From: Candidatus Nomurabacteria bacterium GW2011_GWE1_32_28
GTDB lineage: Bacteria; Patescibacteriota; Minisyncoccia; Phycocordibacterales; UBA9973
DNA length: 59,259 nucleotides
Assembly: GCA_000989515.1 (NCBI GenBank)
Contig: LBOM01000001.1
Span: forward strand, 1-59,259
Direction: 5' to 3'
The translations under genes were made by a program, and so were the position numbers. Below, one piece after another: positions 1 to 49,275 of the stretch (position 1 is its first letter; each line of letters opens with the position of its first letter). The notes beneath the pieces were generated by a model, which did not search any database, was not told the DNA's origin, and saw nothing but the letters and a program-made list of their open reading frames with translations.

Positions 1-990
1 AACAATATTTCTTGAATTTAATATTGAGTAGCTTGTATCAGAATTAATATTTAAATAGGCGTTCCCACCATCCATGTCATCACCAATATTTACCACATTT
101 GCTCCATTAGATGTAGTAACTTTAAAATAATTTCTATTATTATTTTCAAATCTTGCATCACCTATCAATGTAAGTTTTTGAGCTGGCCCCGTCGTCCCGA
201 TCCCGACGTTGCCAGTTGTTAATATAGTCATAGCAGTAGTTCCTAAATTCCATGTATCACTATTTACAGCAAAAGTTAGATTCTTACCACTACCAGTTTG
301 AATTCTGGACTCAGAAGAAGAATTAGTTCCAATAGCAATTCTAGCATCACCAATAGTAACTACGTGTTGTCCAGCACCAGTACCTACTTGTAACTGTTGT
401 AATGGACTCGTCGTCCCGATGCCGAGTCTTGCGTTGCTATTATCCCAAAAGAAATTTGAAGAGAATGAAGTAGTATTCGCAGCTGTTTGGAAGGGAACAT
501 ATCCAGCAGAACCGCCAATAATATTTATTGCATTTTCAGCCACTACTGCACTTGGAACAGAGCCGAGTTTTTTACGAGGAGTCATTTCTCCATCCCAAAC
601 AGGAGTCAAATCTACTCCTCCGATATTTACACCCAAGTAAAGAGTTTGATTAAAATCTACTGAGGTTAATGCTGTCACTTCTCCGAGAAGAACGCTAAAA
701 AGTCCGCTTGTTACTTGTACTCTATTTGTTGTCGTTCTCGTTTCTGTCCATAAAGCCACTCCTCCAGTACTCACATCGTAAAGTACAAATTCCATATTAT
801 AAATACCATCAGCTACAGCTACTCCACTTGCGTTTGTGAGTTTACCTTGATAGTTGATTTGTTTATTTATAGCAGCATGTGATGTAGAAAAAGGGGAGAG
901 TAGAAAAAATAAAATTAAAAACAAAATAAAGAAATTCTTTTTTGATTTATAAAAATTTTTTATTTTAATTTGTAATTTGGGATTTAACAT
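1..990 (-). CDS. large secreted surface/adhesin-like protein, N-terminal part (gene continues beyond position 1)
   Basis: My own minus-strand translation from ATG 990-988 stays open for 330 codons to the window edge. It reads MLNPKLQIKIKNFYKSKKNFFILFLILFFLLSPFSTSHAAINKQINYQGKL..., giving a signal peptide, an INYQGKL-type domain and repeated GIGTT(S/G)P motifs. It is absent from the ORF track because it has no stop in the window. Confidence 0.7.
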   Translation of the reverse strand, partial: MLNPKLQIKIKNFYKSKKNFFILFLILFFLLSPFSTSHAAINKQINYQGKLTNASGVAVADGIYNMEFVLYDVSTGGVALWTETRTTTNRVQVTSGLFSVLLGEVTALTSVDFNQTLYLGVNIGGVDLTPVWDGEMTPRKKLGSVPSAVVAENAINIIGGSAGYVPFQTAANTTSFSSNFFWDNSNARLGIGTTSPLQQLQVGTGAGQHVVTIGDARIAIGTNSSSESRIQTGSGKNLTFAVNSDTWNLGTTAMTILTTGNVGIGTTGPAQKLTLIGDARFENNNRNYFKVTTSNGANVVNIGDDMDGGNAYLNINSDTSYSILNSRNIV

Positions 991-1127: not shown

Positions 1128-1487
1128 TTACTCAATTATTTCTATATCAGAAGAAAGTGTCTTTTTAACTTCTTCTGAAATTATTTTCTTATTTTTTCCA
1201 TAAAGATATATGCCAAAGAAAAGGGAACACACAAGAAGTATCCCTGTTATTACAAAAATTTTTTTTGTTTTCTTTTGTGATAAGAAATCTCCAACAGCGA
1301 GCTTGTTGTGACGAATTTTTTGTTTAAAAATGTAATTATTTATTTCTTCTTCAGTGGTAAACCAATTACCTCCTATTTTTCTTCCTTTTATCTCCTTTTT
1401 TCGTATTAGAGAGCTTAAATAGTCTGAATGGTATCCAGTAATCTTTGATGCTTGATTTAGTGATATAATTTTTTTAAGATTTTCCAT
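1128..1487 (-). CDS. membrane-anchored helix-turn-helix protein (excisionase/MerR-like HTH followed by one TM helix)
   Basis: The N-terminal LNQASKITGYHSDYLSSLIRKKEIKGRKIGGNWFTTEEEI looks like an HTH_17-type motif. The hydrophobic segment IFVITGILLVCSLFFGIYLY follows. Confidence 0.55.
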   Translation of the reverse strand: MENLKKIISLNQASKITGYHSDYLSSLIRKKEIKGRKIGGNWFTTEEEINNYIFKQKIRHNKLAVGDFLSQKKTKKIFVITGILLVCSLFFGIYLYGKNKKIISEEVKKTLSSDIEIIE

Positions 1488-33368: not shown

Positions 33369-35297
33369 TTAAATACTTAATATTACAGGTATAACTAATG
33401 GTCTTTTTGCAGTTTTTTGAAATAAGAATTTTGAAACAGTTTCACCAATATTAGATTTTATGTGATCTAGGTCAATTTCATTATTTTTTATAGCTATGTC
33501 ATCTACTCCTTTTTTGATTATAATTCGTACCTGTCGTAAAAGTTCTTGATTTTCTTTAAGATATACAAACCCACGTGATATTAGATCTGGTGATTTTTTT
33601 AATTTACGAGTCTTAAGATCTATTAATGCTATTATTACAAACATTCCATCTTGCGCAAGCATTTGTCTATCTCTGATAACTACATCTTGTACATCACTGA
33701 TTGCAAGTCCGTCTACCATCATTGGAGCAGATGGTGCTTTTTCTTTTCGTAAAATAATTTTTTCTCCATCATTAGATATTTCAATAATAGAACCATTGTC
33801 TGGTACTACTATTCTTTCTTCTGACATTCCTGCCTCTATCGCTAGTTCTTTGTGGAGCTCTAACATGAAATGATTGCCATGAATTGGAATAAAAAATTTT
33901 GGATGTACTTTTTTATGAAGCCATCTTATATCTTCTTTGTTTCCATGTCCTGTAGCATGAATGAAGTCTTCTCCAGCTGTTCGATAACTTATTATTTTGA
34001 CACCTTGTCGTGAAAGATTATCTTTAATACGTTGAACTTTTATTTCATTTCCAGGAACCACAGAAGATGAAAGTATAATAGTGTCTCCTTTTTTGATTGA
34101 AAATTTAGTGTGAGATTTGTTTGCAGCACGCGAAAGTGCTGCAAATTCTTCACCTTGAGATCCTGTCATAAGTATTACAACCTTGTTAGGAGGATATTTA
34201 TCAGCATCTTCAATAGGTATCAATGTATCTTTTTTGGGCTTAAAGTATCCAGCTTCTATTGCTACATCTATATTTGTTTTCATAGAACGTCCATCAATAG
34301 CTATTTTTTTCCCTAAATTCTCAGCCACTTTTACAACATGAGTTAGTCGAGTGATGTGTGATGCAAAAGCAGCAATTATTATACGTCCATTTACCTTTTT
34401 TATTAAATTTTCTAACCCTTGATGTACTTTTATTTCAGGCAATGAAAAACCCTCATTTTCTATGTTTGTAGAATCTGTCATCAATAAAAGAACTTTTGCT
34501 TTATCAAAAATAGAATATTCTTTTTCTTCTTGGTCTGATACTATTCCATCTACTTGGTCTAGCTTATAATCTCCAGGGGTAACTATCCAACCATTTTTAG
34601 TTTCTATTATTACACCCATTGAATCTGGAATAGTGTGTGTTACTCCAAAAAATCTAACTTTTATTTTTCCACATGTTACTACTTCATCTTTTTCCACCAC
34701 GTGTTCTTTTATTGCTGCAAATTGTGGGAATTCAGCTTGCCTTTTTTTCATTAGAAGCATAGAAAGATTACGAGAATATACTGGAGGATTGCCTATACGT
34801 GAAAGTACAAGTGGTACTCCTCCTATGTGATCTAAATGTCCATGAGTTATAAAAAGCCCTCGTATTTTGTCTTTATGCTCTTCTAAATATGTCGTATTTG
34901 GTATAACATAATCAACTCCTGGTGTATCTTCATTGGAAAAATGCATACCTGCATCTACTAAGATAATATCTTCTCCTATTTCTATCGCCGTCATATTTTT
35001 CCCTATTTCTTCAACACCACCTAGTGGTATAATACGAACTACTCCTTCTAACGGAGAAGGAATTTTATTTTCACTTATATTTTTATATTTATTTTTATTA
35101 TCGAATGGACGATTTCCATTTCTAGATGGTCTATAATTTTTTTTAGTATACTGATAAGTAGAACTTTTTATAAGTTTTTTTCTTTCAGGATTTTTATTTT
35201 GAGTTTCTGTTTTTTGTAATAGGGGATTACTTATTGTTTTATTTTCTTTCTTTTCTTCGATGCTGATAGCACTAAAAGATAGTCTAGTTTTTTTCAT
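33369..35297 (-). CDS. rnj: ribonuclease J with Lys/Asn-rich N-terminal extension
   Basis: Metallo-beta-lactamase THGHLDHIGG, beta-CASP region, HATGHG. About 75 extra basic residues at the N-terminus. Confidence 0.9.
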   Translation of the reverse strand: MKKTRLSFSAISIEEKKENKTISNPLLQKTETQNKNPERKKLIKSSTYQYTKKNYRPSRNGNRPFDNKNKYKNISENKIPSPLEGVVRIIPLGGVEEIGKNMTAIEIGEDIILVDAGMHFSNEDTPGVDYVIPNTTYLEEHKDKIRGLFITHGHLDHIGGVPLVLSRIGNPPVYSRNLSMLLMKKRQAEFPQFAAIKEHVVEKDEVVTCGKIKVRFFGVTHTIPDSMGVIIETKNGWIVTPGDYKLDQVDGIVSDQEEKEYSIFDKAKVLLLMTDSTNIENEGFSLPEIKVHQGLENLIKKVNGRIIIAAFASHITRLTHVVKVAENLGKKIAIDGRSMKTNIDVAIEAGYFKPKKDTLIPIEDADKYPPNKVVILMTGSQGEEFAALSRAANKSHTKFSIKKGDTIILSSSVVPGNEIKVQRIKDNLSRQGVKIISYRTAGEDFIHATGHGNKEDIRWLHKKVHPKFFIPIHGNHFMLELHKELAIEAGMSEERIVVPDNGSIIEISNDGEKIILRKEKAPSAPMMVDGLAISDVQDVVIRDRQMLAQDGMFVIIALIDLKTRKLKKSPDLISRGFVYLKENQELLRQVRIIIKKGVDDIAIKNNEIDLDHIKSNIGETVSKFLFQKTAKRPLVIPVILSI

Positions 35298-40564: not shown

Positions 40565-40590
40565 AAACTCCGACTTCGGTCGGAGAAACT

Positions 40591-42183
<1,593 letters not shown>

Positions 42184-42389
42184 TGAAAATCGTCCTAATT
42201 CTTCTTTGGAGAATTACAGATCCCACCAAAAGTGGGATCTAGATCAAGGTTTGATCGGACTTATTGAGTCGGTATTGTGTCGCTCAATTGACGACACAAT
42301 GCTTGATCATGACAAGCTAAAAAAATGAAGTTTAAGATAACTTAAAAATCTAAGACAATTTGGAAAGACAAATAAATAAAAAAGTTTAA

Positions 42390-43840: not shown

Positions 43841-43872
43841 AAAAAACTTCCGACGAAAGTCGGAAGTTTTTT
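43841..43872 (+). terminator. canonical intrinsic terminator
   Basis: aaaaaacttccgac-gaaa-gtcggaagtttttt. Confidence 0.8.
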
Positions 43873-46661: not shown

Positions 46662-47908
46662 AAAACTTTTTTAAAAAATCATGGTGGGCTCTTAAACTTT
46701 TTTTTACTAGAATTTATTATAGCAATCCATCAAAGAAATTAAAGATAATAGGAGTGACTGGCACAAATGGTAAGACAACTACAGCTACACTTTTATATAA
46801 AATTTCAACTGAATTAGGATACAAAACAGGACTTATTGGAACTGTGGAAAATATTATAGATTTAGAAGTTTTACCACATGATGAAAAATCTCCTAGCACT
46901 ACACCTGATTCTATTTCCTTAACTAAACTTTTTAAAAAGATGGTAGATGCTGGTTGCGAATATGTTTTTATGGAAGTTTCTTCTCATGCATTAGATCAAG
47001 GAAGAGTTAATGGGATAAATTTTACTGGAGGAATTTTTACAAATTTAACACATGATCACTTAGATTATCATAAAAATTTTCAAAATTATTTTTTAGCTAA
47101 AAAGAAATTTTTTGAAATGCTTCCTAATACTGCTTTTGCTCTTTCTAATATGGACGAAGAACACGGTAATGCAATTTTGGATAAGATTAAAGCTAATAAA
47201 TTCTTCTATGGGTTTGAAGACCTGTCGGGTGTTGGACACCCGACGATAGATTTTTATGGCAGAATTTTGAATTTAGATTTTTCTGGTTTAAAATTAGATT
47301 TTAATGGAGAAATAATAAGTTCTAAACTTTTAGGAAAGTTTAATGCCTATAATTTACTTTCTGTATGGAGTGCTAGTAAGCTTCTTAATTTTGATATGAC
47401 TAAGGTAAATAAAATTATAGAAAAAATAGAACCACCTCGTGGGCGCTTTGAACATTTTTTATCTAAGGATGGAATTATTGTTATCATAGACTATGCACAT
47501 ACACCAGATGCATTGGAAAAAGTTCTTTTAACTATAAAAGAAATTAAACCTGATAATGGAAGGATTATATCTGTATTTGGTTGTGGGGGAGATCGTGATC
47601 CATTAAAACGATCTAAAATGGGAAAGATAGGAGCAAGTTTATCTGATATTGCTATTTTTACTTCAGATAATCCAAGAAATGAAAATCCGGAAAAAATTAT
47701 TGATAACATGAAAAATGATTTAACACATGAAGAAAATCAAAAAGTTGTAACTATTGCAGATCGTCGTTTGGCTATAGAAGAATCAGTAAGATTAGCAATA
47801 AAGGGAGACATTATTCTTTGTGCAGGAAAGGGACATGAAAATTACCAAGAAATAAAAGGAGAAAAAAAGCATTTTGATGATATAGAAGAATTTCGAAAAG
47901 TTATTTAA
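46658..47908 (+). CDS. murE: UDP-MurNAc-L-Ala-D-Glu:meso-DAP ligase MurE, lacking most of the N-terminal domain
   Basis: [12 protein letters not shown]-loop only about 30 aa from the start, [22 protein letters not shown], and DAP-specific TSDNPRNE. Confidence 0.8.
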
Positions 47909-47913
47909 ACAAA

Positions 47914-49275
47914 ATGCAAAACTACAAACAACATTTTAAGGGCAAGAAGATTACAGTTATGGGACTGGGGCTTTTGGGTAGGGGGATTGGTTATACTAAA
48001 TTCTTGGCAGAATGCGGAGCTGATTTGATAGTGACTGATCTAAAAACAAAAGAACAACTCAAGGCTTCAGTAGAAGCAATTACGAATTACGAATTACGAA
48101 TTAAAAATAAAAAGAAAATAAAATTTGTTTTAGGTGAACACAGGCTAGAGGATTTTAAAGATAGAGATATGATTATCAAGGCTGCCGGTGTACCGCTTGA
48201 TTCTATTTATATAAAAGAAGCAGAGAAAAATAATATTCCTGTAGAAATGGACGTTTCTTTGTTTGCAAAATGTGTGCCTGAAGTGATGTTGATAGGAGTG
48301 ACAGGTACCAGAGGTAAATCTATGACCACAGCACTTATTTATGAGATTCTTAAACAAAATGAGAAATTCTTGAAGCGTAAAGTTTATATTGGGGGAAATG
48401 TAAGAGGGGTAGCCACTCTTCCTCTTCTTAAAAAAGTAAAAGACGGAGATATTTTAGTTTGTGAACTTGATTCTTGGCAATTACAAGGTTTTGGAGATGC
48501 TAAAATGTCTCCTCATATTTCTGTTTTTACTTCTTTTATGCCGGATCATATGAATTATTATGGTAATTCTATGGAAAGATATTTTGGAGATAAAGCAAAT
48601 ATTTTTAAATATCAAAAAGATAATGATGTTTTGATTGTTCGTCCGCATATTAAAAAAATTATTAAGAAAAAAATAAAATCTAAATTAATTGTAGCAGATT
48701 TAGAAAAAGTGAATGATTTTGATTTTATTGTACCTGGAGAACATCAGAAAGAAAACCTGGCTTGTGCAGTAGAAGTAGCTGAGCTTTTCAAAATTCCTAA
48801 GATAAAAATAAAAAATATTGTTGCTAAATTTAAAGGATTAGAAGGACGATTGCAATATTTAAAAACAATTAAAGGAATAAGAATTTATAATGATAATAAT
48901 GCAACTACTCCAGAAGCAACCATTGCTGGAATCAAAGCTCTTTACCAAGAAGGAAAAGAAGAGAAGATAATTTTAATTTCTGGTGGAGCAGATAAAAACC
49001 TTGATTTGAGTCTTTTCATTAATGTTGTAAATACTTTTTGTAAAGTAATGGTCCTGATACCAGGAAGTGGGACAGAAAGATTAATTAAAAATTACAAATT
49101 ACGAATTACGAATAAAAAAGTAAAAAATTTAAAAGATGCTATAAAAGAAGCTATAAAAATTTCAAAAAGAGGGGATGTTATCCTTTTTTCTCCAGCTTTT
49201 GCATCTTTTGGTCAGTTTAATAATGAATATGAACGTAATGATTTATTTGTAAAAATAATTAAGAAATTGAAATAA
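47914..49275 (+). CDS. murD: UDP-MurNAc-L-Ala:D-Glu ligase MurD
   Basis: KITVMGLGLLGRGIG Rossmann-like N-terminus, GVTGTRGKSMTT, NDNNATTPEAT, SPAFASFGQF. Confidence 0.8.
   Translation: MQNYKQHFKGKKITVMGLGLLGRGIGYTKFLAECGADLIVTDLKTKEQLKASVEAITNYELRIKNKKKIKFVLGEHRLEDFKDRDMIIKAAGVPLDSIYIKEAEKNNIPVEMDVSLFAKCVPEVMLIGVTGTRGKSMTTALIYEILKQNEKFLKRKVYIGGNVRGVATLPLLKKVKDGDILVCELDSWQLQGFGDAKMSPHISVFTSFMPDHMNYYGNSMERYFGDKANIFKYQKDNDVLIVRPHIKKIIKKKIKSKLIVADLEKVNDFDFIVPGEHQKENLACAVEVAELFKIPKIKIKNIVAKFKGLEGRLQYLKTIKGIRIYNDNNATTPEATIAGIKALYQEGKEEKIILISGGADKNLDLSLFINVVNTFCKVMVLIPGSGTERLIKNYKLRITNKKVKNLKDAIKEAIKISKRGDVILFSPAFASFGQFNNEYERNDLFVKIIKKLK
48078..48103 (+). repeat. (AATTACG)x3 heptad repeat inside murD, in frame (ITNYELRI)
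   Basis: aattacg aattacg aattacg aatta. Confidence 0.9.
49090..49113 (+). repeat. AATTACA-AATTACG-AATTACG heptad repeat inside murD, in frame (NYKLRITN)
   Basis: aattaca aattacg aattacg aat. Confidence 0.9.

Follow-up and report, generated by a model that had tools for sequence, protein, structure and literature searches.

Bacterial heptanucleotide simple-sequence repeats (SSRs), such as the STRR of heterocystous cyanobacteria, the TAACTGA repeats of Beggiatoaceae, Cyanobacteria and Bacteroidetes, and the GGGAATC repeats of Xanthomonas, are the closest kind of described system to the AATTACG arrays examined here, which occur in a 59,259-nt stretch of DNA from Candidatus Nomurabacteria bacterium GW2011_GWE1_32_28 (contig LBOM01000001.1; hereafter the window). 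According to Mrazek 2007, as cited in PMC4679880 and PMC4692102, no class of long simple-sequence repeat is more abundant in bacteria than the heptanucleotides, for which polymerase slippage has been suggested as the cause. Unit-specific families with patchy distributions have been described for TAACTGA (PMC4679880) and for GGGAATC/GGGGAYT (PMC4692102). Like these repeats, the AATTACG arrays consist of tandem 7-nt units, favour period 7 and one dominant unit, are patchily distributed across phyla, and in some cases form inverted hairpin pairs or lie close to start codons (PMC4679880, PMC4692102). Unit number also varies, in a single case drawn from assemblies. Heptanucleotide SSRs have been described as almost entirely intergenic, a common trait of the class but no strict requirement, whereas only one of the four heptad loci in the window is intergenic and the other three lie inside the 16S rRNA gene or inside murD, the gene for an essential cell-wall enzyme. 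Also unlike the known heptanucleotide SSRs, one in-frame array occupies the same codons in deeply separated lineages, with turnover of its units. The arrays thus have the defining features of heptanucleotide SSRs except for the usual intergenic location, and we consider it probable that they represent a heptanucleotide microsatellite family caught in those parts of rRNA and essential genes that tolerate it.

Repeats within open reading frames (ORFs) are known from other systems, including the in-ORF heptanucleotide repeats that give on/off translation of neuO in Escherichia coli K1. The murD arrays are likewise 7-nt repeats in an ORF in which a one-unit change truncates the protein, as seen in one assembly described below; however, neuO-type arrays comprise a dozen or more units in dispensable surface-modification genes, as against 3-4 units in an essential gene, and there was no evidence of regulated switching in murD. 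Rickettsia palindromic elements (RPEs) are dispersed palindromes of ~100-150 bp with a recognisable family consensus, short non-coding DNA found in RNA genes and, in-frame, in loops of housekeeping proteins, where a position on the protein surface makes it tolerable. An earlier note on this DNA had likened the arrays to RPEs, and the first of the two murD arrays does lie in-frame in a surface loop without disrupting the protein (+8 aa, helix end/loop). The likeness nevertheless fails on size, palindromy, family consensus and defined ends, since all arrays in the window measure 26-33 nt and those of murD are non-palindromic direct repeats of 26-31 nt with variable unit number and no defined ends; of the window arrays, only the composite 16S insert folds as a hairpin (z = -11.2), while the murD and spacer arrays do not. 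Yeast mitochondrial GC clusters and the small dispersed repeats of Nostoc are tiny, and occupy spacers, rRNA genes and, in-frame, a protein gene. Being palindromic or hairpin-borne, they are nearest to the GC-rich mini-palindromes that we describe below from relatives, whereas the AATTACG arrays are plain tandem repeats. Finally, the 16S insert resembles rRNA expansion segments and intervening sequences in extending the tip of a variable helix as a predicted hairpin that varies among close relatives, and differs from them in that both of its arms are built from a microsatellite unit also present in protein genes.

A heptad repeat imposed on DNA against codon preference

The 453-aa product of the ORF carrying two of the arrays has homologues named MurD that carry Pfam Mur_ligase_M/C, and is similar to the solved Streptococcus agalactiae MurD 3LK7 (E = 5.7e-49). 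Its closest named relatives belong to Candidatus Nomurabacteria (Paceibacteria; up to 78% identity), and the sequence runs that contain this sequence are groundwater metagenomes. Reading the sequence confirmed the positions and translations previously given for both murD arrays, which encode ITNYELRI(K) at site 1 and (I)KNYKLRITN at site 2, except that the site 2 array starts one unit before its earlier boundary at 49090, with AATTAAA at 49083-49089. Further arrays were identified in a spacer, where the repeat begins 4 nt past the stop of a minus-strand ORF (1128..1487), and in the 16S rRNA gene, where exact AATTACG stretches lie on opposite strands (41735-41751 and 41778-41802). Allowing at most one mismatch, the 14-mer AATTACGAATTACG occurs 8 times against 0.04 expected from 100 shuffles, none of which reached 8 occurrences, so that a chance origin of the double heptads is excluded. 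Single AATTACG heptads, by contrast, number 16, near the mononucleotide expectation of about 14, and 13 of the 16 are held in tandem arrays. Tandem Repeats Finder reported period 7 with 100% matches at 48078-48103 and 41778-41802, and with 84-91% matches at 1092-1123 and 49083-49113. A role as a DNA uptake sequence was rejected, with four loci in 59 kb and arrays in place of dispersed single motifs. The A-rich tract noted after the repeat was also discarded as a component of an element, since arrays in other genomes lack such a tail and end in varied sequence, and the present genome is 29.5% GC. The spacer of the intergenic array holds a second heptad array with the unit AATTTGT, ~110 nt away.

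Because 7 and 3 have no common factor, the sense frames of the repeat are equivalent: (AATTACG)n encodes the stop-free cyclic peptide N-Y-E-L-R-I-T in every one, while the complementary (CGTAATT)n contains TAA in every frame. In-ORF arrays are therefore possible in sense orientation only, and those of the window and its relatives are all so oriented. It follows that the common phase of the two murD copies, remarked on in the earlier note, is automatic. A proposed rule of three heptads per insertion did not survive either, as site 1 has gained a net 24 nt, not 21, and an array in a ksgA-like gene of a relative has 4 units.

Several lines of evidence place the repeat at the level of DNA rather than of peptide. 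Across 40 long ORFs of the window, TAC makes up 13% of Tyr, CGA 9% of Arg and ACG 6% of Thr codons, and for the peptides encoded, the codons actually used have a probability of 4.6e-5 (site 1) and 9.4e-5 (site 2). In a set of 80 metagenomic murD loci (loci and proteins are given L and P numbers, respectively), LRIT at site 2 is written with CGA and ACG in five of the six loci that encode it, and L185/L186, whose MurD is 60% identical to that of the window, have 33 identical nucleotides in common with it at this site. Orthologues writing the same peptide with unrelated codons were looked for, and L152 alone did so (AGA/ACA), still with a period-7/14 pattern. Rare codons and nucleotide conservation in orthologues therefore show that the arrays are head-to-tail 7-nt units imposed on the DNA against codon preference, which bears out the earlier view of a DNA repeat common to an rRNA gene and an essential enzyme. 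A peptide motif combined with codon bias was rejected as the cause by the codon usage and synonymous-resampling tests.

The two murD sites

At site 1, most orthologues read ...ALSKF-KN-IKF, whereas the window reads ...AITNYELRIKNKKK-IKF and is 8 residues longer; the same 8-residue gap appears relative to 3LK7. In an AlphaFold model (mean pLDDT 85), residues 50-62 form a helix, 63-69 coil and 70-73 a strand, and the insert is accordingly predicted to extend the helix end and the next loop of the N-terminal domain, in agreement with the suggestion that this copy is a loop insertion. A heptad insert of equal length, with partly decayed units, is carried by 15 of 119 homologues (e.g. AATTAAG AATTACG AATTAAA AATTAAG in L126, with an identical array in L135). 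On a neighbour-joining MurD tree with sites 1 and 2 both masked, the carriers are scattered, and identity between carriers exceeds that between carriers and non-carriers solely around MurD residues 31-80. Furthermore, the nearest relatives of several carriers, at 85-89% identity, have no insert or a different one (P0005/P0010, P0036/P0045, P0095/P0065). Such a distribution requires repeated gain, precise loss, or short-patch lateral exchange. Other orthologues carry unrelated GC-rich inserts of 20-35 nt in the same loop, e.g. CGCCCCGCCAAAGGCGGGGCA and CCAGTCCCAAGCAAGGCTTGGGACTGG, comprising at least five types, all of them hairpin-forming palindromes and all patchy on the tree, and site 1 is thus an insertion hot spot. 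From these alignments, site 1 is a derived insertion of 8 residues, placed in a loop of the MurD N-terminal domain that is hypervariable.

Site 2 covers the end of a helix (385-393), a loop and a strand (399-402) of the model. The second murD copy had likewise been put forward as an insertion; instead, no length change was found at this site across 120 proteins and 80 loci, nor relative to 3LK7. Conserved here is the 7-nt periodicity of the DNA, while the units differ by lineage (Table 1). For 33 of 68 orthologues, the period-7 self-match at site 2 is among the highest 1% of all windows of that gene, and in 33 of 68 it exceeds a synonymous-codon null (p <= 0.05), a null that is already high for peptides such as N-Y-K-L-K-I, which yield AATTNNN when written in AT-rich codons. 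Orthologues above the null include some with very different peptides, LVSSSKFLVTS, LKAKSYKLKPKI and LKRLKIKVES, whose period-7 DNA goes beyond it with p of 0 to 0.01. The excess over the null, together with unit turnover, points to a long-lived in-frame array evolving in concert. Taken together with the location of site 1 at a helix end and loop and of the 16S insert at a helix tip, these findings show that the arrays sit at structurally tolerant places.

Variation in unit number was also observed. L201, an independently produced assembly of this strain, agrees with the window across 21 kb, and outside the 16S gene the sole difference is that L201 has one heptad fewer at site 1 (2 vs 3 units). 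The missing heptad frameshifts murD into ORFs of 66 and 368 aa, and the 368-aa product is present in the protein database as P0003. The 2-unit form was found on 2 contigs, as against at least 23 contigs from independent assemblies and runs for the 3-unit form, with the exact MurD protein present in four runs; an artefactual 3-unit form was rejected on these grounds. Further heptad arrays were found in Logan contigs, on other contigs of similar depth.

These results also bear on the idea that the repeat does no more than reflect a conserved peptide motif (NYxLxIxN, forming an amphipathic strand or the end of a helix) encoded by AT-rich codons, or else that it is an assembly artefact. The motif NY[KE]L[KR]I is widespread at site 2, and AAT-TAT-AAA-TTA-AAA-ATT gives a period-7 AATTNNN pattern automatically, with a self-match of 0.53-0.58 under the synonymous null. 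Such an origin does not account for the rare codons at both sites, for the lineages whose quite different site 2 peptides keep period-7 DNA, or for the same unit in non-coding rRNA and spacer, and the repeated recovery of the 3-unit form opposes an artefact. We therefore regard this explanation as highly improbable.

Arrays in 16S rRNA, related loci and other phyla

The 16S insertion was located by comparison with the bacterial small subunit (SSU) rRNA model, in which cmscan placed 110 nt of the window against 2 nt of the model in the terminal loop of a helix at positions about 1148-1170, which we take to be helix 40 by E. coli numbering. The insert is predicted to fold as one near-perfect long hairpin (-56.8 kcal/mol, z = -11.2) in which heptad units pair with inverted heptad units, and its 3' arm, compared by eye, matches murD site 2 over 31 nt with one mismatch. 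No significant RNA fold was found at the murD arrays (z = -1.6 and +0.8) or the spacer array (z = +0.4). Pairing between the murD (AAUUACG)n and a 16S arm is unlikely, since both rRNA arms pair together. Among relatives, a homologous insert whose units are rearranged is present in L173 (MurD 66% identical); in five others the helix is short and AT-rich or of the minimal bacterial form, and L123 carries a long, unrelated insert, giving lengths at this site from about 14 to about 115 nt. The metatranscriptomes sharing sequence words with this region derive from other communities, and the insert is covered in none of them.

Some further features of the rRNA genes were observed. Rfam matches in the window were limited to the 16S gene and three tRNAs, with no 23S or 5S gene adjoining the 16S, which is followed by a further 17 kb of the window, so the rRNA genes appear unlinked. 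The 16S gene of L165 contains an insertion of ~417 nt between positions equivalent to 1462 and 1463 of the window 16S, which is not the site of the heptad hairpin. Within the 16S gene, the window and L201 differ by five substitutions and by a 20-nt segment, AAGGTTAGAAATCCTAGTGA, missing from the window; these differences may reflect either true heterogeneity or a chimeric assembly across a conserved part of the rRNA.

A survey of 1.06 Mb of related Paceibacteria loci identified seven exact arrays of at least 3 copies at period 7, five of them with the unit AATTACG, and 0-1 at each of the other periods from 5 to 12. Imperfect arrays numbered 27 at period 7, 17 of which lie at the two murD sites, against 0-3 at any other period, and the window alone has four period-7 arrays against 0-1 for other periods. 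Period 7 is thus the only enriched tandem period in the lineage. The further copies that the earlier note had called for were found, including an in-frame (AATTACG)4 in L193, a lineage whose MurD is just 54% identical to that of the window. This array forms part of the interdomain linker of an rsmA/ksgA-like methyltransferase (...VDSAIIRLELRITNYELRDTEQ...) with no obvious length change.

Other AATTACG arrays in relatives occupy murE-downstream spacers immediately before start codons. Arrays of AATTACG/AATTAAG fill short spacers before a Cys-rich (zinc-finger-like) gene in L125, L141 and L160, following murE in the first two and lying between two copies of the Cys-rich gene in the third. Their position recalls that reported for TAACTGA repeats, which provide a precedent for heptamer repeats upstream of start codons (PMC4679880). 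One explanation is that the arrays are functional cis-elements, either binding sites for a protein that recognises single-stranded heptamers, such as the Csp or S1-type binder suggested for TAACTGA repeats, which would adjust translation or mRNA stability, or a contingency locus that turns murD on and off through changes in unit number. In its favour are the arrays directly upstream of start codons (L125 3819, L160 1677, L141 6943) and their precedent, the conservation of exact site 2 DNA across orthologues of 60-68% identity, and the existence of a frameshifting unit-number variant. We nevertheless judge a cis-element quite unlikely: murD is an essential housekeeping gene, and three units are far below typical phase-variable lengths; the units at site 2 vary by lineage, against one conserved binding specificity; the rRNA arms pair together and are unavailable as single-stranded sites; and no binding protein was identified. 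A dedicated function of the arrays is not required by the data.

Beyond the candidate phyla radiation (CPR), exact (AATTACG)3 was searched for in one genome per species, and the following results hold among the matches listed. Arrays were found in Nostocales and other Cyanobacteria, Bacteroidota, Acidobacteriota, Planctomycetota, Chloroflexota, Ignavibacteria and others, and the repeat is thus not specific to CPR bacteria; no Patescibacteria were among the matches listed. The arrays comprise 3-11 units with varied flanks, and several loci have inverted, hairpin-forming pairs. At these loci, exact arrays of period 7 number 204, compared with at most 15 of any other period; besides the AATTACG arrays, 69 period-7 arrays are built from 50 other units. 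A long stop-free frame spans about 8 of the 132 AATTACG arrays (at most 11 such frames), and no conserved flanks were seen among the 132. At one Acidobacteriota locus (L036), two near-identical flanks hold 3 and 4 units, and at several Nostocales loci the array follows similar short flanks, ...ACTTTCTT or ...CAAAACT[CT], which may reflect orthology or a preferred context. In IMG/VR, the AATTACG unit occurs in 64 stretches, as against 22, 19, 12, 4 and 4 for five control heptads (3-16x commoner); AATTACG is a favoured but not a unique unit. A literature search found no paper with AATTACG arrays, and nothing on in-frame repeats in CPR bacteria.

Table 1. Coordinates of heptad arrays and associated features in the window and, where an L number is given, in other loci
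Feature	Position or locus	Strand	Basis or remark
murD (UDP-N-acetylmuramoyl-L-alanine--D-glutamate ligase), 453 aa	47914..49275	+	ORF list, homologue names, structure similarity
murD site 1 array, (AATTACG)3 + AATTA	48078-48103	+	(AATTACG)x3 at 48078-48098, then AATTA up to 48103
murD site 2 array, AATTAAA AATTACA AATTACG AATTACG AAT	49083-49113	+	Sequence read directly
16S rRNA gene	40591..42183	+	Rfam RF00177, 1312 bits, full length
AT-rich 16S insertion closed by CCCCCGCC/GGCGGGGG	41712..41818	+	cmscan
16S hairpin 5' arm, (AATTATC)2 (AATTACG)2 AAT	41721-41751	+	Sequence and fold
16S hairpin 3' arm, AATTAAA (AATTACG)3 AATT	41778-41810	-	Read on minus strand
Intergenic array, AATTACG AATTAAC AATTACG AATTACG AATT	1092-1123	-
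Intergenic array, unit AATTTGT	954-979		About 3.9 copies, 80% matches
GC-rich hairpin inside murE	47224-47244		GTCGGGTGTTGGACACCCGAC, encodes SGVGHPT
GC-rich hairpin just before 16S	40568-40585
GC-rich hairpin just after 16S	42219-42239
GC-rich hairpin upstream of secA	43847-43866
GC-rich hairpin	34122-34143
16S differences, window vs L201	41301-41338 and 41564; L201 3120-3157 and 3383-3402
16S insertion of ~417 nt	L165 483-900
In-frame (AATTACG)4, rsmA/ksgA-like gene	L193 14631-14659
Spacer arrays before Cys-rich gene	L125 3819-3836; L160 1677-1701; L141 6940-6979		AATTACG/AATTAAG
Site 2 unit AATTACG	Window, L125, L147, L165, L185/186
Site 2 unit AATTACC/T	L126, L132, L141
Site 2 unit AATTACA	L140, L143
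Site 2 unit AATTAAG/A	L145, L155
Site 2 unit AATTTCT	L121, L122, L129
Site 2 unit AGTTTCT	L130, L134
Site 2 unit GCTAAAA	L164
Site 2 unit AGATTAA	L138, L172
Nostocales loci with similar flanks	L040, L043, L050, L063, L077, L101, L116
GC-rich palindromes, relatives	L138 1335-1355; L152 6499-6525, 7356-7378; L157 3269-3291; L128 7817-7849, 6966-6980
GC-rich palindromes, relatives	L181 2065-2089, 14164-14181; L191 7172-7196; L169 5462-5484
GC-rich palindromes, relatives	L147 3081-3103; L164 8295-8317, 8582-8597; L123 921-939

Origin and significance of the arrays

Under the microsatellite explanation that we favour, arrays would arise and be homogenised through replication slippage or short-patch conversion, and would survive where constraint is low, namely in spacers, at the tip of a 16S helix, and in protein segments at helix ends and loops. 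Purifying selection would remove antisense and out-of-frame states. As a slip of one unit would frameshift the gene, viable steps would be of three units only, and an array of 3-5 units in an essential gene, having no stepwise route of decay, might become trapped and long-lived while its units turn over, as may have happened at site 2. Such trapping would explain why the murD sites dominate the arrays common to relatives. Site 1 would represent a younger addition of 8 residues to a loop tolerant of diverse short inserts, and its scatter over the tree would imply repeated gain or lateral exchange by recombination.

Several observations weigh against this explanation. A single CpG-containing unit, AATTACG, is present at all four loci of the window, in other genes and in the rRNA of distant relatives, and across many phyla, and it exceeds the control heptads in IMG/VR; purely neutral slippage leaves such a preference unexplained. 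The site 1 insert has constant length and shared imperfections, yet is polyphyletic and missing from its nearest relatives (85-89% identity), a pattern that needs recombination or site-specific re-insertion beyond local slippage. Homogenisation without length change, as at site 2, has no demonstrated mechanism, and the unit-number variant of L201 is a single, assembly-derived case that could be an assembly error. The favoured CpG-containing unit and the polyphyletic site 1 cassette keep alive a reading in which both arrays and palindromic inserts spread laterally.

Palindromic inserts are a recurrent feature of related Paceibacteria, in which loops of MurD (four or more sites), MurE, SecA and a GyrA-like protein carry in-frame GC-rich palindromes of 17-33 nt, with similar palindromes in spacers, e.g. 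just upstream of 16S. The window itself holds five short GC-rich perfect hairpins, one of them inside murE. The palindromes of relatives look like an RPE- or GC-cluster-like family of mini-inserts.

In the light of these inserts, the AATTACG arrays might constitute a small laterally spreading element, copied to fresh sites and lineages by an unknown enzyme or through recombination after DNA uptake, that would settle in rRNA helices and, in-frame, in the loops of essential proteins as a functional analogue of RPEs or yeast mitochondrial GC clusters. The polyphyly of the site 1 insert, with excess identity among carriers confined to about residues 31-80 and closest relatives lacking it, would fit an element of this kind, as would the other palindrome types in the same loop, the 25-nt palindrome that is identical in MurD of L128 and SecA of L181/L191, and the palindromes in MurE, a GyrA-like ORF and upstream of 16S. 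The near-exact match joining murD site 2 to the 16S arm, the exact unit across phyla, and the inverted hairpin-forming pairs in several of them point the same way. However, the arrays have no defined termini, target duplication or conserved flanks, their copy number changes by single units, no net sequence was gained at site 2 or in the ksgA array, the murD arrays are non-palindromic and do not fold, no associated enzyme was found, and the density in relatives is low (about 10 non-murD arrays per Mb). On balance we think an element of this kind unlikely. We give only tentative credence, as a possible but doubtful extension, to a joint class in which the AATTACG arrays and the GC-rich mini-palindromes of related Paceibacteria are very small repeats spreading between loci and lineages, by recombination after DNA uptake or an unknown enzyme, with rRNA helices and, in-frame, the surface loops of essential proteins (MurD, MurE, SecA, GyrA-like and KsgA-like) as targets.

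Heptanucleotide repeats have been known as an unexplained, mostly intergenic oddity of some bacteria. New here is a heptad unit that lies in-frame in an essential cell-wall enzyme and in both arms of a 16S helix extension, within a reduced CPR genome. On the microsatellite explanation, these findings suggest that microsatellite dynamics can produce lineage-specific protein and rRNA insertions, and that in-frame arrays in essential genes can be long-lived, with one-unit slips lethal and the array trapped. Such arrays are also a real cause of frameshifted gene calls in metagenome assemblies, as illustrated by the murD gene split in one public assembly. The two murD sites, together with the palindromic inserts of the same loop, provide a tractable natural system for following the lateral movement of tiny repeats in CPR bacteria. 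The joint class of spreading repeats, if true, would be a CPR counterpart of RPEs and would supply lineage-specific insertions of the kind typical of CPR proteins and rRNAs.

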